From a virus: DNA of 64,000 nucleotides. Below, in pieces: positions 37,562 through 60,178 of the stretch. Where the stretch lies: positions 32,001 to 96,000 of the IMG/VR virus record IMGVR_UViG_3300027971_000028. One strand, 5' to 3'. How positions within the stretch are numbered: position 1 is the stretch's first letter; each line of letters starts with the position of its first letter. The notes below the pieces were generated by a model, which saw only the letters and a program-made list of their open reading frames with translations, was not told the DNA's origin and did no database searches. Made by a program: the position numbers and the translations under genes.

Positions 37562-38242
37562 ATGACTCGCTCAATTATCTTAGTTCCATCTAGAACTAGA
37601 CCTAAAAGATTTGTTAAAGCAGTGGACTCTCTAAGATATCACTCAACTGTTTCGGACATAGTTGCTTGCTTAGATGAGGATGATCACGCTTTATATCCAA
37701 GGATGCAGGGTATTAAGTATGAGATAGGACCTAAACCAGAGCAGTTAGGTGTAAATGAAAAACTAAATCGCATGGCAAATAAGTATATGGACGAGTATGA
37801 CTACATTCTTTGGGCAGCGGATGACACGACTGTTATGACACCTAAGTGGGATGAAAACCTTATTAATGCAATAAAAGATGTGCCTATGGGCATCTCATAC
37901 CCAGATGATTTGGCTCAAAGGGCTCTTTTACCTAGCAACGGAACTTGTTTTGATTCAAATATTGTAAAAACACTTGGATACCTAGCCCCTCCTGAGTTAT
38001 TACATTTATATATAGATAATTTTTGGAAACTACTAGGAGATGCTATGCAGACTCTTAGATACTGCCCTGAAGTTATCTTAGAACATCACCACTACGCAGT
38101 TCGCAAGGCACCTTCTGATGATTTATATGCTGCGATAAACTCTCCTTGGATGTATGAGCGAGATAGGAATGCTTTGGCTAAATATAAGATGACAAATTTT
38201 CAGAGTGATATTACAAAACTAAAAGAGGCAATTAACAAATGA
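37562..38242 (+). CDS. GT-A fold glycosyltransferase (GT2-like)
   Basis: IILVPSR..IVACLDEDD..YDYILWAADD; EHHH near the C-terminus. Confidence 0.8.
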   Translation: MTRSIILVPSRTRPKRFVKAVDSLRYHSTVSDIVACLDEDDHALYPRMQGIKYEIGPKPEQLGVNEKLNRMANKYMDEYDYILWAADDTTVMTPKWDENLINAIKDVPMGISYPDDLAQRALLPSNGTCFDSNIVKTLGYLAPPELLHLYIDNFWKLLGDAMQTLRYCPEVILEHHHYAVRKAPSDDLYAAINSPWMYERDRNALAKYKMTNFQSDITKLKEAINK

Positions 38243-39243
38243 AAGTATTAGTAACTGGTGTAGCAGGGTTTATGGGCAGTCATTTAGCAGATGCTTTTCT
38301 TGCTAAAGGCTACGATGTTGTGGGAATAGATAATTTACTAGGTGGATATGAAGAAAATGTACCTTCAGGTGTTGATTTTCATAATATAGATTTAGATAAT
38401 TTAGAACTAATCCAACCTCTTTTCAAAGATGTAGATTTAGTAGTTCATACTGCTTGTACTGCCTATGAAGGGCTATCCGTATTCTCTCCGTCTCTAGTTG
38501 TTAGAAATACCATGCAAATAACAACAAACATAATGAGTGCTTGCGTAAAGGCTAATGTTAAAAAAATTGTTCATCTATCTTCTATGGCAAGGTATGGCAC
38601 TCAGGATGTAGTTCCCTTTGTTGAGTCAATGACCCCTAAGCCTCAGGATCCGTATGGAATTGCAAAGTATGGGGCTGAACTTATGATTAAAAATATTGCA
38701 GACACTCACGGACTTAATTATGTAATACTTGTTCCACACAACATTATTGGCCCTAGACAAAAATTTGATGACCCTTATAGAAACGTAGCCTCTATTATGA
38801 TAAATAGAATGCTTCAAGGTAAGCAACCTATTATCTATGGAAATGGCGAGCAAAAAAGATGTTTCTCATTTATGCAAGATGTCACTGATCCACTTATGAT
38901 TGCATGTGAGACTGATGTTGCTGATGGTCGAATTGTTAATATTGGTCCAGATGAAGAGTTTGTTACCATAAATGAACTAGCTCAGAAACTATCAATAATT
39001 CTTGATTTTAAGTTAGATCCAATTTATATGCCAGGAAGACCTCAAGAAGTATTTCACGCTAACTGCTCAGCCAATCTAGCAAGAGAACTTTTAAACTACA
39101 AAACCACTACCTCATTAGAGTCTGGATTAGTAGAACTAGTAAACTGGATTAAATCTAAGGGCGCTAGGCAGTTTAATTACCACCTGCCTCTAGAGTTTGT
39201 TACTGATAAAACTCCAAAAACTTGGACAGACAGGCTTATGTAA
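38239..39243 (+). CDS. NAD-dependent NDP-sugar epimerase/dehydratase (extended SDR)
   Basis: VTGVAGFMG, SSMARYG, YGIAK (YxxxK), HNIIGP. Confidence 0.92.
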   Translation: MKVLVTGVAGFMGSHLADAFLAKGYDVVGIDNLLGGYEENVPSGVDFHNIDLDNLELIQPLFKDVDLVVHTACTAYEGLSVFSPSLVVRNTMQITTNIMSACVKANVKKIVHLSSMARYGTQDVVPFVESMTPKPQDPYGIAKYGAELMIKNIADTHGLNYVILVPHNIIGPRQKFDDPYRNVASIMINRMLQGKQPIIYGNGEQKRCFSFMQDVTDPLMIACETDVADGRIVNIGPDEEFVTINELAQKLSIILDFKLDPIYMPGRPQEVFHANCSANLARELLNYKTTTSLESGLVELVNWIKSKGARQFNYHLPLEFVTDKTPKTWTDRLM

Positions 39244-40105
39244 AACTAGTAATAGATTTATATTTTTCTGTTCTATTTTCTTTATTTTTTAAGTAATTAA
39301 ACCACCACCTAGAGGCCCCAAGATTCTCACTCAAGGTAAGGACTCCATATATAGTTCTGTTGTCTATGTATTGAGTAATCCCTTTATCTCTAGCCGAGTT
39401 AGAAAAAACCATATACTCCCAGCGGTCTGACTGCTCTAGATAATTAAGTTCAGATAGGTACTCTCTTTTAATCAGATAAGTGCAGTGAACACACATGCAT
39501 TCAATTAACCCTCTTACCTCTTGATTTAAAATTTTGTAGTAAATATCTTCTGCAATAATTGACCCAAAGTCATCTACTTTGTCGTGGTAGTTTGAGTAGT
39601 ACCTGCTCATATGACCTTCTCGCTTAGCAGCCTCTATAGGAGTATCAGCGTTTTCTCCAAGCGCAACCGCATACCTTAAGAAGGGAGCAACTATAGGTAA
39701 GTCTAGTTTTACTAACTCTTTAAGAGTTTCTGGGAACAAGAAGTTGTCGGTATCTACTACAAAATAATACTCGCAATCTGTGAGTAAGGCTTGATTCATA
39801 CTTTCTTGACGAATTTTTCCTAGAACCCTAAATCTTTCCCCATTCCAGAAATGAACATCATACTGCTCTACCTTCTCTGGAACATCTTCGCTGTTATAGA
39901 TTAATCCTTTATATTTATCACCGTACTCTTCTACCCACTCTTCTAAAAGTTGTTTTGTGTTATCTGTGTTGTTATTAGTTCTTATGTAGATAAATATGTT
40001 TTCTTTAGGATAGTCCCAATCATTTAAACTTTCTAAAAAAAGTGGAAGAACTGCTTCTTTTTGTTTTACAAGAAGGGCTAAGAATACGTTTGGCTGTGTC
40101 ATCAA
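39236..40105 (-). CDS. GT-A glycosyltransferase resembling the procollagen galactosyltransferase N-terminal domain
   Basis: LPLFLESL..YPKENI..NNNTDNT..LEEW; VVDTDN (DxD); IVAPFL; CVHCTYLI. Confidence 0.7.
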   Translation of the reverse strand: MMTQPNVFLALLVKQKEAVLPLFLESLNDWDYPKENIFIYIRTNNNTDNTKQLLEEWVEEYGDKYKGLIYNSEDVPEKVEQYDVHFWNGERFRVLGKIRQESMNQALLTDCEYYFVVDTDNFLFPETLKELVKLDLPIVAPFLRYAVALGENADTPIEAAKREGHMSRYYSNYHDKVDDFGSIIAEDIYYKILNQEVRGLIECMCVHCTYLIKREYLSELNYLEQSDRWEYMVFSNSARDKGITQYIDNRTIYGVLTLSENLGASRWWFNYLKNKENRTEKYKSITSFT

Positions 40106-57914: not shown

Positions 57915-57928
57915 TTTTTAGCCCCTCC

Positions 57929-60178
57929 TTAGTTAAAATTAAATCTAATAAGTCTATTAGCAGCAGGCATTCCTAAAGATATTTGATTATAAGTTACTCC
58001 ACCAATAATTGAATATATACTAGAGTTAGGCGTAACCATTGCGTAAGTGTCTTCACGCCAAGCAAATATCTGCGGTGGATATCTATCATTATCACTAGAG
58101 TTTAAACCAACTGCTGCATAATTAAATATAAGTGGAGAAGCAACGCTAGAAGGAAGCCTCATAGAGCCTCCTAGAAGAGTAACGGTGTTTGTTCCAGAAG
58201 GAGCGTATAAAGTAACTGTTGATGTAACTCTAGCCATGTTAAATCCTCTTGAATAACTTCCAGAAGACCCATTGCTACTACCTGTATTACCTACAGTCAC
58301 AGTAAATGTATTAGAGTCTGAAACTGTTACTGTTAAAGATTGAGCGCCTGAAATATTTGTATTTCTAATAATTACTCTATCTCCAGTTGTTAGCCCATGG
58401 GAAGTAGATGTAACTGTTAATGTTGTAGTAGAACGACTCCATGTAAGCGCTGATTTTTGGTCAACATCGTATGAATGTAGATAAAATTCTTCACCAGAAG
58501 TGCTTTGTACTTGATATCTTTCAATATAAACAGATGACCCAGCGCCTGCTGGTCCCGTAGGTCCTGTAGCACCTGTTACACCAGCACCAGTTACTCCAGT
58601 TACACCTGTATTACCAGTAACACTCGCACCAGTTGCGCCAACTGCACCCGTTACACCTGTATTACCTTGCGCACCCGTAGGTCCTGCAACAGTTGAGTCA
58701 GCACCAGTCACACCCGTATTACCAGTAATACTTGCACCAGTTGCTCCAGTAGCACCAGTTACACCAGTATTACCAACCGCACCCGTTTGTCCTGTAGCAC
58801 CAGTTTGTCCAGTAACACTTGCACCAGTTGCACCAGTTGCACCTGTATTACCAGCAACAGTTGAGTTAGCACCAGTAGGTCCAGTATTTCCAGTAACACT
58901 TGCACCAGTTGCTCCCGTTACACCTGTTAATCCAGTTGCTCCTGTATTACCAACTGCTCCAGTTTGTCCCGTTGCTCCAGTATTTCCAGTAACACTTACA
59001 CCTGTTTGACCAGTTACACCAGTATTACCTTGCGCACCAGTATTTCCTTGTGCACCAGTTTGCCCAGTAACACTCGCACCAGTAGCACCTGTTCCACCAA
59101 CCGCACCCGTAGGTCCTGCAACAGTTGAGTCAGCACCAGTTGCACCAGTTGCACCAGTTGCACCATTTAATCCTGTTACACCAGTATTTCCAGTTACACC
59201 AGTATTACCAGTTACACCTGTATTACCAGTAACACTTGCACCAGTTGCTCCAGTTGCTCCCGTTGCGCCAGCACCAGTAGCACCAGTTGCACCAGTGTTA
59301 CCTGTACCAGTTGGTCCAGTTGAACCTGTACTTCCTGTATTACCAGTTGCACCAGTTTGACCTGCACCAGTAGCACCTGTTACACCTGTTAATCCTGTAG
59401 GTCCAGTCGCACCAGTTTGACCTGAACCAGTTGCACCAGTTGCTCCCGTTGCACCAGAAGGACCAACAATTTGTCCTACACTGCTCCAACTAGATCCGCC
59501 CCAAACATATAAGTCACCATCAGCATTAACAATGTATGCATCATTAACTGCGTTACCACTTGATGGTAAATTACCAGTTGCTGCAACACTTCCACGAACA
59601 TTTATAGATGTTCCAGCAGCACCAGTATTTCCAGTTACACCAGTGTTTCCAGTAGGTCCAGTTCCACCTGTTGCACCTGTTGCACCAGTAGGTGCGCCAG
59701 CAGGACCCGTCGGTCCTGTTGCACCAGTTGGACCTGCACCAGTTGAACCAGTTCTTCCTGTTACACCTGTTGGACCTGTATTACCTTGTGGACCAACTGG
59801 TCCTCTAGATGAAGCAAATGCTCCTTGAGAATTTGATACTGGGGCTACTCTGTCTAAGTTAGAGAAATTAACACTATTTACGCCAGTTAATAAATAAAAT
59901 TTAAAACTATAAGCCCTAGCCCCTGAAATTCTTACTGTCGCTGTGTAATACCACCCAATTGGAGATAGATCTCTATCATCTGTACATGGAAGTGTGATTG
60001 AAAATGCACCAGAAGCATTTAAAGTTTCTGCCTGTGGGTCACTAATAATTACTGCATCATTAGCATCTAAAATTCTGCCAGAAGGTGTAAAAGTTACTAT
60101 TCCAGCGGCAGCGCTTCCATTTGTATTCGTGAAGCTGCCCGTGATCGTTCTAGTGGATACATCCGCTGGATATGGCAT
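57929..60178 (-). CDS. Collagen-like fibre protein with N-terminal Ig-like anchor domain
   Basis: N-terminal G.VTFTP..G.FSITLP.TDD..P.GW.Y domain, ~400 aa of GXT, C-terminal SHGLTTGD module. Confidence 0.85.

Follow-up and report, generated by a model that had tools for sequence, protein, structure and literature searches.

A conserved glycosyltransferase pair beside a hypervariable Gly-X-Thr collagen fibre island in a freshwater actinophage, with likeness to collagen-modifying enzymes

Overview

At the edge of a minus-strand island of Gly-X-Thr (GXT) collagen-like genes in a viral genome, we identified two adjacent glycosyltransferase (GT) genes, GT2-TPR and GT_B, whose families are linked to similar collagens in bacteria. 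The best explanation is that the two proteins glycosylate the phage's own GXT fibres, to which we give a probability of roughly 0.6, glycosylation itself being deduced by comparative genomics: the phage probably sugar-coats its fibres, because relatives of both enzymes adjoin like collagens in many bacteria. New in this picture are a partner resembling the GT1 domain of COLGALT1 and the fusion of the pair in bacteria. The window analyzed is a 64,000-nucleotide stretch (positions 32,001 to 96,000 of IMG/VR record IMGVR_UViG_3300027971_000028).

Genome context and layout of the locus

The source genome is complete (133 kb, ~40% G+C), encodes WhiB, and belongs to a siphovirus of freshwater Actinobacteria. 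An earlier note, made from the letters alone, had listed three GTs, an epimerase, five GXT collagens, and five glycine-rich genes, all of which we recovered in place: the sugar-gene segment (37562-41139) holds three GT-like genes and one NDP-sugar epimerase, and the island (41408-60178, ~19 kb, minus strand) has five genes each for GXT collagens and PF21722 glycine-rich proteins, along with small accessory genes. The island does lie apart from the canonical tail module, as that note had it, with the siphovirus tail genes on the plus strand and replication genes in between. Past the window end, the genome carries additional PF21722 genes and one extra collagen gene outside the island, which is thus part, not the entirety, of the phage's fibre-type gene set.

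Tail module and sugar-gene segment:
9604-10653, plus: major tail protein, canonical tail module
13622-16441, plus: tape measure, canonical tail module
16441-21264, plus: Dit/Tal-like, canonical tail module
37498-37534, both strands: bidirectional terminator-like hairpin (15-16 bp stem), left boundary of the sugar-gene cassette
37562-38242, plus: GT_A, 226-aa GT-like protein (phrog_14945 'glycosyltransferase', E 7e-39)
38239-39243, plus: NAD-dependent NDP-sugar epimerase/dehydratase, SDR (PF01370, E 5e-52)
39236-40105, minus: GT_B, 289-aa stand-alone GT-A protein (weak Anp1/GT2 Pfam matches)
40102-41139, minus: GT2-TPR, 345 aa, N-terminal GT2 (E 2e-4) and C-terminal TPR (TPR_2, 31.2 bits, above cut-off)

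The hairpin is placed between a 380-aa gene (36345-37487) and GT_A. GT2-TPR and GT_B, with a 4-nt overlap, run on the strand of the fibre genes; a gap of ~270 nt on that strand separates the island from the start of GT2-TPR, a spacing that we count against fibre glycosylation.

Composition of the fibre island

Genes of the island:
41408-41644, minus: 78-aa Ala-rich candidate ORF, the island's last small gene (read from the sequence; shorter than the ORF-list threshold)
41647-42015, minus: 122-aa small protein, paralogue 1 (phrog_7759, E 3e-41), immediately downstream of a glycine-rich gene
42069-43412, minus: 447-aa protein, N-terminal ~170-aa domain plus PF21722 (E 2e-18), candidate adhesin tip
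43429-44733, minus: 434-aa protein of the same architecture (PF21722, E 1e-12)
44733-45323, minus: 196-aa protein, paralogue of the N-terminal domains of the two preceding proteins (BLASTP among relatives); no match in Pfam or PHROG
45328-45861, minus: 177-aa mini-fibre (PF01391 weak; 8 GXT triplets, Y = Thr in 8/8)
46023-46388, minus: 121-aa small protein, paralogue 2 (phrog_7759, E 1.5e-30), 10-nt overlap with the end of a glycine-rich gene
46379-47854, minus: 491-aa protein, FN3 repeats (fn3, E 3e-13) plus PF21722 (E 3e-13)
47854-48156, minus: 100-aa Thr/Ala-rich small protein (phrog_1276, E 7e-8)
48274-48621, minus: 115-aa small protein, paralogue 3, phrog_7759-like, 4-nt overlap with the stop of a glycine-rich gene
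48618-49454, minus: 278-aa PF21722 glycine-rich protein (E 6e-10)
49454-49801, minus: 115-aa small protein (phrog_30535, E 4e-39)
49812-51173, minus: 453-aa collagen-like fibre protein (PF01391, E 6e-18; 45 triplets, Y = Thr in 37), shared N-terminal anchor motif
51292-53430, minus: 712-aa collagen-like fibre protein (PF01391, E 2.5e-40; 99 triplets, Y = Thr in 64)
53526-54452, minus: 308-aa PF21722 glycine-rich protein (E 1.2e-8)
54453-57914, minus: 1153-aa collagen-like fibre protein (PF01391, E 7e-40; 120 triplets, Y = Thr in 96)
57929-60178, minus: 749-aa collagen-like fibre protein, the island's first gene (PF01391, E 8e-26; 104 triplets, Y = Thr in 74)

Pooled, the five collagen genes hold 376 GXY triplets, counted in runs of at least four, with Thr at position Y in ~74% and no Lys in the collagen repeats. 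In the mini-fibre, a conserved N-terminal anchor motif is followed by the GXT triplets and then by a C-terminal knob, also conserved; the C-terminal domain hits both phrog_21510 and phrog_8780 'minor tail protein'. The common anchor and knob are present in the 712-aa protein; the same knob ends the 1153-aa protein, whose 11 collagen runs are broken up by globular domains, and the 749-aa protein has an N-terminal match to phrog_14726 'tail fiber protein' (E 1e-11).

All five glycine-rich genes exceed the PF21722 cut-off, with a poor AF2 model for the 278-aa member (pLDDT 54). The N-terminal domain of the 447-aa protein is paralogous to the 434-aa and 196-aa proteins and also to stand-alone ~175-aa genes of relatives. 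The first phrog_7759 protein (41647-42015) finds viral hypotheticals only in the ESM Atlas, its pairing with a glycine-rich gene recurs in relatives, and homologues of the third (50-60% identical) likewise sit after glycine-rich genes. By analogy, these small proteins may be fibre-assembly chaperones. Homologues of the 100-aa protein adjoin fibre genes in relatives; 'adaptor', as it had been called, and 'head', applied to the glycine-rich proteins, are names with no finding behind them.

Nucleotide identity of 92-96% across 30.1-41.3 kb of the window ends at the island start and persists only in patches beyond, so that the island is hypervariable even among near-identical phages while the GT pair at its edge is conserved. 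The PF21722 modules and the small genes following them resemble receptor-binding tail-fibre tips with their chaperones (PMC9608196). Together, hypervariability and this likeness point to host recognition, making tail or side fibres more likely than the head fibres or whiskers proposed earlier, a placement left unsupported.

A conserved GT pair and a strain-specific sugar cassette

The GT2-TPR and GT_B pair is kept beside WhiB in 34/34 IMG/VR relatives (70-97% identity), and collagen genes lie upstream of it in all five larger relatives. A GT2-TPR homologue of phage DSL-LC01 likewise stands at the end of a collagen/glycine-rich island. GT_A and the epimerase are confined to the nearest relatives (GT2-TPR at least 92% identical), and other sugar genes fill their slot in other relatives; the constant set of three GTs plus epimerase envisaged earlier thus shrinks to two GTs clade-wide. 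GT_A had no sequence match in Pfam, NCBIfam, or PDB and no similarity to a GT25 protein with which it was compared. The epimerase reached no NCBIfam equivalog; it probably supplies a modified sugar donor.

GT2-TPR matches phrog_13126 (E 2e-71) and GmaR (E 0.005), and we regard it as a putative protein O-glycosyltransferase of the SgtA/GmaR kind. GT_B detects COLGALT1 (E 1e-15) and LH3 (E 8e-7) among PDB sequences. Its AF2 model (pLDDT 92.7) retrieved COLGALT1 or LH3 as the best 17 of the Foldseek matches listed, followed by three mimivirus R699 entries. VIA-align gave Z 30.8 to COLGALT1 residues 48-320, 26.7 to LH3 residues 293-543, and 21.6 to R699, against ~17 for generic GT-A folds, teichoic-acid GTs among them. 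D118, D120, H207, and D248 are invariant across 15 homologues (38-69% identity). Among proteins of prokaryotic viruses, GT_B comes closest, by sequence and predicted fold, to the GT1/AC domain found in the collagen glycosyltransferases of animals and mimivirus.

Linkage and fusion with collagens in bacteria

Across several bacterial phyla, both conserved GT families are genomically tied to GXT collagens. GT_B homologues at 42-51% identity mark 79 bacterial loci in at least six phyla, 54 of which have a collagen-like ORF no more than 8 kb away; these loci are phylogenetically non-independent, many being Mesorhizobium, and the 25 without a detectable collagen include some on short contigs. The linked collagens are often giant, with up to 457 triplets and a median of 93% Thr at Y, and in five whole genomes (5.6-9.1 Mb) the collagen gene beside the GT is the sole or largest one. 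For GT2-TPR, a Thr-rich collagen gene accompanies 7 of 10 close full-length bacterial homologues, mostly starting 50-200 nt downstream, compared with 21 of 70 distant or partial homologues and 0/6 epimerase control loci.

Fusions of counterparts of the two proteins also occur in bacteria, as [GT2-TPR]-[GT_B]-[GT25 or other], with the domains in the order of the phage genes. In hhalign, the N-terminal parts of these collagen-linked bacterial multi-GTs align with phage GT2-TPR at 99.8% probability (E 8e-28). Residues 404-890 of a Mesorhizobium multi-GT match COLGALT1 residues 24-502 (E 1.6e-37), and its N-terminus matches GmaR (E 4.5e-9). Elsewhere, at 41% identity, the pair occurs as neighbouring genes with a GT25 gene after them.

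A model for fibre glycosylation and its alternatives

We propose that the island, read from 60178 to 41408, encodes modular, rapidly exchanged virion fibres in which trimeric GXT collagen stalks would carry PF21722 distal modules, the probable binders of the host surface, the small partner proteins perhaps acting as assembly chaperones. The TPR arm of GT2-TPR would engage unfolded or nascent collagen chains in the host cytoplasm, and its GT2 domain would use a host UDP-sugar to place an initial sugar on the Y-position Thr of the GXT repeats. GT_B might then extend the glycan or, like its animal counterparts, be a partner protein that binds UDP-sugar or collagen. For this phage and those most closely related to it, the convergent two-gene unit of GT_A and the SDR epimerase could add a further, strain-specific sugar, a role that different tailoring genes in the same slot may play in other relatives. 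We infer the acceptor, the sugars, the timing, and the virion attachment site of the fibres alike. If the model is true, glycosylated Thr would stabilise the triple helices, which are poor in proline, an effect known from Riftia cuticle collagen and (Gly-Pro-Thr)10 peptides, and the sugars would hydrate and shield the fibres; stabilisation of triple helices by Thr glycosylation is described in PMC11923368, citing Bann 2000 and Mann 1996.

The earlier note had tied the GTs functionally to the collagens. Bacterial linkage, fusion, likeness to COLGALT1 and R699, and the SgtA architecture support that tie indirectly; against it, distant phage GT_B homologues (38-44% identity) sit beside whiB in small actinophages, where they lack a GT2-TPR partner and have neither a collagen nor a glycine-rich gene closer than 10 kb. 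The GTs are to that extent independent of collagens, which the earlier note had named as counting against its reading. Because the nearest solved relatives of GT_B, COLGALT1 GT1 and LH3 AC, are non-catalytic (PMC12003778), GT_B may transfer no sugar. In what amounts to a version of the main model more than a competitor to it, GT_B could be a pseudo-enzyme, a UDP-sugar-binding scaffold or collagen chaperone, leaving transfer to GT2-TPR (with GT_A) alone. Accessory status also of the R699 C-terminal domain, the structural binding of Ca2+ and UDP-Gal by COLGALT1 GT1 (PMC12003778), and the constant position of bacterial counterparts between catalytic GT domains speak for this, but the phage protein stands alone in a genome with no GT25, and its four invariant residues are those expected of an active metal-dependent GT-A enzyme; we consider it possible but doubtful.

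Other targets are weakened by the complete genome, in which we found no ThyA-like hydroxymethylase, 2OG hydroxylase, GT25, or other GT2. It is unlikely that the GTs are directed at the host's cell envelope or at one of its proteins, as in superinfection block or wall glycopolymer remodelling, with their place by the island accidental. The distant GT_B homologues, which lie among early-type genes far from collagens, would fit such a target, as would the polysaccharide-locus look of the variable sugar-biosynthesis cassettes, a GT_B-bearing phage (37.5 kb, 90% complete) with no collagen-like gene in its recovered DNA, and the published view that freshwater actinophage GTs serve DNA protection or cell-wall modification (PMC10202952, PMC10611076). 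Against this stand the close linkage and fusion of both families at bacterial GXT collagens, the greater structural nearness of GT_B to collagen enzymes (Z 27-31) than to generic GT-A folds including teichoic-acid GTs (~17), and a TPR arm typical of protein-directed GTs (SgtA, GmaR). Somewhat less probable still is glycosylation of other virion proteins, capsid or tail tube, instead of the collagen fibres. Mycobacteriophage GTs modify capsid and tail-tube subunits at their C-termini (Freeman 2023, as cited in PMC12619734), and our phage, also an actinophage, has a long major head protein gene (712 aa), but its head and tail-tube genes are 30 kb away from the GTs, which directly adjoin the fibre genes, and the bacterial linkage is specifically to collagens. 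Glycosylation of phage DNA against restriction, the classical role of phage GTs, recalls the weak match of GT_A to a PHROG family annotated as DNA methyltransferase; we think it highly improbable given the missing ThyA-like hydroxymethylase, GT families other than the known DNA GTs, the TPR arm, the collagen-enzyme fold, and the bacterial collagen linkage.

Comparison with known collagen glycosylation systems

Glycosylation of the phage's GXT fibres by the conserved pair would have parallels in viruses, bacteria, and animals. Mimivirus L230 and R699 glycosylate viral collagen (PMC9614988, PMC9546862), and GT_B resembles the GT1 domain of the human collagen galactosyltransferase COLGALT1 and the accessory domain (AC) of LH3. 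GT2-TPR shares the architecture of Clostridioides difficile SgtA, a likeness drawn from the published description of SgtA: SgtA (358 aa, GT-A plus TPR) is encoded upstream of bclA3 and puts beta-O-GlcNAc on Thr of the BclA3 collagen repeats in vitro (PMC7157674). In Clostridia, stand-alone GT2-TPR homologues lie directly upstream of Thr-rich collagen genes, mirroring the placement of sgtA and bclA3.

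Phage genome and sugar genes

The window covers bases 32001-96000 of a single viral contig of 133,336 bp, complete by CheckV, whose gene content is of the siphovirus type: it encodes a major head protein (6471-8609) and a major tail protein (9604-10653; window coordinates), a tape measure (13622-16441) and Dit/Tal-like proteins (16441-21264). The phage also has its own replication genes, namely PolA (26191-28011), a helicase, an exonuclease, a Sak4-like annealase and an SSB. A WhiB regulator (35752-36276; PF02467, E 7e-17), together with a window G+C of ~40%, points to a phage of low-GC freshwater Actinobacteria. 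For one gene, the closest relative that bears a name is DSL-LC01, an Actinomycetia phage assembled from a Dishui Lake metagenome (PMC10611076), and a DNA similarity search against GenBank phages returned trivial matches only. Profile and PHROG searches recovered both the sugar genes and the adjoining collagen/glycine-rich island on which the earlier note had built its proposal that the phage glycosylates its own fibres.

Sugar genes of the window: coordinates, strand and identity
37562-38242 (+): GT_A; phrog_14945 'glycosyltransferase' (E 7e-39)
38239-39243 (+): SDR NDP-sugar epimerase/dehydratase; PF01370 (E 5e-52)
39236-40105 (-): GT_B; stand-alone protein of 289 aa with PDB sequence matches to COLGALT1 (E 1e-15, phmmer) and LH3/PLOD3 (E 8e-7)
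40102-41139 (-): GT2-TPR; TPR_2 above cut-off, phrog_13126 (E 2e-71)

The minus-strand genes GT_B and GT2-TPR converge on the plus-strand pair of GT_A and the epimerase, and the stop of GT2-TPR overlaps the start of GT_B by 4 nt. The epimerase/dehydratase reached no NCBIfam equivalog. A strong bidirectional hairpin (37498-37534) lies 5' of the GT_A/epimerase pair; promoter and terminator scans gave no excess over shuffled expectation.

A collagen-rich fibre island

The island extends from 60178 to 41408, upstream of GT2-TPR on the same strand, and contains five collagen-like and five PF21722 glycine-rich genes, three paralogous genes of ~120 aa (phrog_7759), each directly downstream of a glycine-rich gene, and several small Thr/Ala-rich genes. 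Four of the collagen-like genes score far above the PF01391 cut-off (E 6e-18 to 2.5e-40), and the remaining 177-aa gene, with 8 triplets, falls below it. Across the 376 collagen triplets, Thr fills the third position (Y) in about three quarters, the commonest X residues are Ala, Asn, Pro and Val, and Lys is absent. The five PF21722 (Gly_rich_2) genes of the island score 35.7-67.7 bits against a cut-off of 24.3 bits, and the whole genome holds ten PF21722 matches. The fibre set described in the earlier note is therefore present, and its repertoire is larger and more dispersed than had been proposed, with PF21722 and collagen genes past the window end. In whole-genome coordinates (G000:C1), these lie at 99460-101100 (+), 107454-111231 (-) and 116515-116955 (-) and comprise more PF21722 genes, in part as frames that hold two domains, and a single additional collagen gene.

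Several further features of the fibres were recorded. An N-terminal domain of ~170 aa, shared by two large glycine-rich proteins, is paralogous to a 196-aa protein (42069-45323, -), and in a 97%-identical relative (L002:6548-9727) it recurs as two extra triplets of stand-alone genes of ~175 aa. The non-collagen segments of the fibres gave no significant Pfam domain. Between collagen runs of the 1153-aa fibre lies a globular insert (54894-55193, -; residues ~908-1007) whose motif HPFW ... recalls, by eye, a cupredoxin copper site; a cupredoxin-like domain was not supported for this insert, which has no Pfam copper-protein match and a weak DUF4352 match only. Sub-threshold matches to one and the same small beta-barrel (E1_FCCH-like) occur in the Dit/Tal-like proteins (16441-21264, +) and in two collagen fibres (57015-57914 and 57932-58537, both -). 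The small phrog_7759 protein retrieved viral hypotheticals only from the ESM Atlas and nothing from Pfam or NCBIfam, and has no detectable similarity to Tfa-type chaperones. For the PF21722 glycine-rich protein, a PDB profile search was empty, the AF2 model (pLDDT 54) was too poor for structure search, and tblastn against 50,697 phage records gave no match, for which the low-complexity filter is probably to blame.

GT2-TPR, a putative protein O-glycosyltransferase

GT2-TPR carries an N-terminal GT-A (GT2) domain, matched by PF00535 slightly below cut-off (E 2e-4) and by GmaR (E 0.005), and a C-terminal TPR (TPR_2, residues 223-252, 31.2 bits against a 27-bit cut-off), with designed-TPR PDB matches spanning residues 230-340. 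Within alignment A2, D83 and D85 are invariant. No other GT2-type gene was found elsewhere in the complete genome. The gene closes the collagen island, and its homologue in DSL-LC01 likewise ends a collagen/Gly-rich island. Stand-alone full-length homologues, at 34-39% identity, derive mainly from Clostridia and Bacillota; among the ten close full-length ones, seven have a Thr-rich collagen gene alongside, mostly starting 50-200 nt downstream, and among more distant or partial matches the count is 21 of 70. No collagen was found at the epimerase control loci (0/6); as six loci are too few for a base rate, collagen genes were instead counted across the whole genomes of five bacteria. Judged by its GT2 domain, TPR and gene position, GT2-TPR is predicted to be an SgtA/GmaR-type protein O-glycosyltransferase.

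GT_B, a stand-alone relative of the collagen glycosyltransferase accessory domain

The AlphaFold model of GT_B is of high confidence (pLDDT 92.7), and in a Foldseek search with it the first 17 listed matches are all COLGALT1 or LH3, followed by three mimivirus R699 entries; similarity to the COLGALT1/LH3 domain type has E 4e-23 and TM 0.77. In VIA-align comparisons, GT_B superposes on the GT1 domain of COLGALT1 (residues 48-320) with Z 30.8 and an rmsd of 2.1 A over 252 residues at 25% identity. Z falls to 26.7 for the accessory domain of LH3 (residues 293-543), 21.6 for the R699 C-terminal domain, 21.5 for Mnn9 and ~17 for ordinary GT-A folds. The animal counterparts, COLGALT1 GT1 and the LH3 accessory (AC) domain, are accessory and non-catalytic (PMC12003778). 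The phage family shows no variation at a DxD motif (D118, D120), at H207 or at D248; the human domain has its metal-binding Asp at the position of D118 (numbering offset inferred), which places the DxD at the metal/UDP-sugar site. With this invariant motif on one side and non-catalytic animal relatives on the other, GT_B may transfer sugar or may be an accessory protein. In the phage, GT_B is not fused to a catalytic domain, and the complete genome contains no PF01755 (GT25) match; fusions of the GT_B domain with GT25 and other GT domains are present in bacterial homologues. A tblastn search with GT_B against the 50,697 phage records gave no match.

Bacterial homologues are fused and often lie beside Thr-rich collagens

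An exhaustive search recovered 830 relatives of GT_B, the best distant ones being multi-domain GT fusions with GT2, GT25, GT4, methyltransferase or sulfotransferase domains. The best distant homologue (41% identity) is encoded on a giant-virus contig (L036:3018-7064; with PCNA, TBP-like, eIF4E and SET genes) as a 1348-aa protein with GT2, methyltransferase, GT_B-like and GT25 domains. Our bacterial survey covered contigs at one genome per species and yielded 79 loci with GT_B homologues of 42-51% identity, from taxa including Mesorhizobium, Bradyrhizobium, Methylobacterium, Methylobacter, Paenibacillus, Bacillus, Parachlamydiales, Gemmatimonadales, Acidobacteriaceae and actinomycete MAGs. A collagen-like ORF lies within 8 kb, often directly adjacent, at 54 of these 79 loci, and these ORFs have a median Thr fraction at Y of 0.93 and up to 457 triplets. 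Across five whole genomes of 5.6-9.1 Mb, the GT-adjacent collagen gene was the only or the largest collagen: in Mesorhizobium sp. AR07, a single frame of 2183 codons adjoining the GT accounts for all 38 collagen Pfam hits, and in Bradyrhizobium sp. ma5 the GT-adjacent frame accounts for 41 of 43. Adjacency of GT and collagen by chance would be well below 1% per genome.

The N-terminal ~400 residues of the bacterial enzymes match the GT2-TPR family over its full length (hhalign 99.8%, E 8e-28, 337 columns), so that the domain order is a GT2-TPR-like N-terminus, the GT_B domain and, usually, a GT25 domain. In the Mesorhizobium protein, residues 4-154 match the Listeria flagellin O-GlcNAc transferase GmaR (E 4.5e-9) and residues 404-890 align to both COLGALT1 domains (E 1.6e-37). 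Since the bacterial enzymes hold both parts in one protein, the phage order of GT2-TPR followed by GT_B is a split form of the fusion. A short contig carrying a tyrosine integrase (L038:638-3289 and L039) encodes GT2-TPR, a GT_B homologue (41% identity) and a separate GT25 gene in succession; it resembles the fusion taken apart into single genes and may be mobile.

As an observation in its own right, the locus L108:6801-9602 of Mesorhizobium newzealandense, with similar ones at L109, L112, L122, L136, L146 and L156, encodes proteins of 660-1900 aa in which a GmaR/SgtA-like GT2-TPR is joined to a full COLGALT1-like GT1 + GT25. Their neighbours are giant (Gly-Ala/Ser/Gln-Thr)n proteins, the longest of 2183-2291 codons, and the loci appear to be uncharacterised bacterial collagen-glycosylation loci.

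A conserved GT pair, a hypervariable island and an exchangeable sugar cassette

The GT2-TPR gene occurs on 34 IMG/VR contigs at 70-97% identity, in all of which GT_B adjoins it with WhiB beyond, and public metagenomes hold hundreds of near-identical GT gene copies. The nearest relatives show 92-96% nucleotide identity over 30.1-41.3 kb of the window, which collapses exactly at the island start; within the island only patches match, such as a small phrog_7759 gene and the 177-aa mini-fibre. In all five larger relatives (5/5), collagen genes lie upstream of the GT pair, sometimes with a non-collagen fibre and extra sugar genes between. GT2-TPR and GT_B are thus core genes, set beside a hypervariable fibre module. 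Such mosaicism in Nanopelagicales phages has been attributed to host recognition (PMC10202952).

GT_A, the epimerase and a 380-aa gene are confined to the closest relatives (at least 92%). At the same junction, other relatives carry, by motif reading only, several GT-like and methyltransferase-like genes (L008:6315-9964), sulfotransferase-like and APS-kinase-like genes (L023:6502-9946), or a trio of oxidoreductase, aminotransferase and acetyltransferase (L031:6062-8641). GT_A was considered as the missing GT25 and rejected, as it has no similarity to GT25 and no PDB or Pfam match.

In small actinophages, distant GT_B homologues (38-44% identity) adjoin whiB; neither collagen nor Gly-rich genes occur within 10 kb of them, and a GT2-TPR partner is absent. 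Among distant records at least 52% complete, five of six have collagen genes elsewhere. G004 (loci L099, L268 and L269), a 37.5-kb WhiB actinophage genome, 90% complete, with a GT_B homologue at 44%, is a counter-example, with no collagen-like gene in the recovered DNA, and 12 further distant records are fragments of 13-58% completeness, uninformative on genome-level co-occurrence. With these whiB-side homologues and a 90%-complete genome whose recovered DNA lacks collagens, the GT_B family is not strictly collagen-bound in phages. The co-occurrence of GTs and collagens that the earlier note put forward as a check holds for the five larger relatives and for 54 of the 79 bacterial loci, and is looser among distant phages, whose GT_B genes lie away from collagens and in one case in a phage with none in the recovered DNA.

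Location of the fibres on the virion

The PHROG matches of the fibres are to 'tail fiber' and 'minor tail' families, in part driven by the repeats; with the hypervariability of the island, they are indirect pointers to tail fibres. Lactococcal phages have collagen-like proteins at the neck or in whiskers, and the present fibres may likewise sit at the neck. Glycine-rich receptor-binding tail-fibre tips with chaperones are known from Pam3 (gp24/gp25) and S16 (gp38), and the likeness to the phage island is one of gene layout: a glycine-rich distal domain followed by a small downstream gene, in hypervariable modules (PMC9608196). By this analogy, the PF21722 modules and their trailing small genes resemble receptor-binding tips with chaperones, as candidate roles. 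A polyglycine-II (PGII) helix lattice, the fold of the S16 gp38, Pam3 gp24 and ALK GlyR tips, is at most a candidate for these modules, suggested by the 'ALK' annotation that the DSL-LC01 authors gave and by the literature (PMC9608196). On balance, we favour host-recognition tail or side fibres.

Proposed mechanism and alternatives

In the proposed mechanism, soluble GT enzymes and virion assembly would share the host cytoplasm. GT2-TPR is predicted to start O-linked glycans on the Thr residues of the GXT repeats, GT_B would extend the glycan or scaffold the reaction, and GT_A with the epimerase, or the alternative cassettes of relatives, would elaborate a strain-specific glycan. Stabilisation of collagen helices by glycosylated Thr is known from Riftia cuticle collagen and from (Gly-Pro-Thr)10 peptides (summary in PMC11923368). 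Because the phage repeats are proline-poor and glycosylated Thr is stabilising, helix stabilisation is the most concrete predicted benefit; protection and hydration of the fibres would be secondary.

The usual reading of phage GTs is that they serve DNA protection or serotype conversion, explicitly so in freshwater actinophage papers, and published interpretations favour action of actinophage GTs on DNA or the cell wall (PMC10202952). Glycosylation of DNA is, however, unlikely here, as the complete genome has no ThyA-like hydroxymethylase. We rejected the hydroxylysine route of animals and mimivirus: with no Lys among the 376 triplets, and neither a 2OG-Fe(II) oxygenase nor a GT25 in the genome, hydroxylysine cannot be the acceptor. 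Returning to Thr O-glycosylation, we tentatively advance, at a probability of about 0.3, a broader reading in which GT2-TPR, a GT1/AC-type GT-A protein and GT25 or another extender would form an ancient collagen Thr O-glycosylation machine, widespread in prokaryotes and phages, always accompanying Gly-X-Thr collagens and the source of the two-domain scaffold of animals and giant viruses (COLGALT GT1 + GT25, LH3 AC). On this reading, glycosylation would be required for folding of the proline-poor phage fibres, and the exchangeable cassette would set a strain-specific glycan affecting host range or resistance to host or grazer enzymes.

Dedicated fibre glycosylation, if true, would mean that host recognition and virion stability are also shaped post-translationally in one of the most abundant groups of freshwater phages. 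How collagen biology evolved is touched by the enzyme pairing as well. Animals and giant viruses were the reported sources of the GT1/AC domain (PMC12003778), which is now found in phages. In Alpha- and Gammaproteobacteria, Bacillota, Acidobacteriota, Gemmatimonadota and Chlamydiota, the full COLGALT-like GT1 + GT25 unit forms one protein with an SgtA/GmaR-like GT, next to giant (Gly-X-Thr)n proteins. These are candidate enzymes for the long-assumed, enzymatically almost uncharacterised glycosylation of Thr-rich bacterial collagens, and possible tools for stable recombinant collagens without hydroxyproline.

Comparison with known systems

Among the closest known systems is SgtA of C. difficile, a 358-aa GT-A + TPR enzyme that in vitro modifies the Thr residues of collagen repeats with beta-O-GlcNAc (PMC7157674) and has as its substrate BclA3, an exosporium collagen-like glycoprotein. 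GT2-TPR is alike in size (345 vs 358 aa), in its N-terminal GT-A/GT2 domain and C-terminal TPR, in its predicted nature as a soluble cytoplasmic enzyme and in adjoining Thr-rich GXT collagen genes, a likeness of architecture and gene position; the Clostridia and Bacillota homologues immediately upstream of collagens reproduce the sgtA-bclA3 layout itself (PMC7157674). SgtA/BclA3 differs in building spore hairs rather than viral fibres and in having no GT_B-type partner.

GT_B, in turn, matches the whole GT1 domain of COLGALT1/GLT25D1 and the AC domain of LH3/PLOD3, and is collagen-associated like both. The COLGALT1 arrangement of GT1 + GT25 is complete in bacterial relatives, whereas phage GT_B stands alone, and the phage has no GT25, lysyl hydroxylase or Lys in its repeats; the animal domains are non-catalytic and reside in the ER lumen. 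Mimivirus, with L230 (hydroxylase-glucosyltransferase) and R699 (glucosyltransferase, a structural neighbour of GT_B at Z 21.6), resembles the phage in encoding both collagens and collagen-GT-fold enzymes, but uses the hydroxylysine route in a eukaryotic host, whereas the phage has Thr-only repeats and no hydroxylase.

Freeman et al. 2023 reportedly found that mycobacteriophage GTs (Che8, Corndog and Myrna type) modify capsid and tail-tube C-termini. These would share with the present proposal actinophage-encoded GTs acting on the phage's own virion proteins in the host cytoplasm; they lie in the head-tail operon, whereas here accessory fibres, in their collagen repeats, are the predicted target, and the GT families probably differ. 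We found no paper in which a phage is described as glycosylating collagen fibres with enzymes of its own. Already known are SgtA-BclA3, BclA glycosylation, mimivirus collagen modification and mycobacteriophage virion glycosylation; three features are particular to this locus: a conserved partner of the GT1/AC type that stands alone, the bacterial proteins in which that partner is fused to GT2-TPR and GT25 and which adjoin giant (GXT)n proteins, and the exchangeable tailoring cassette.
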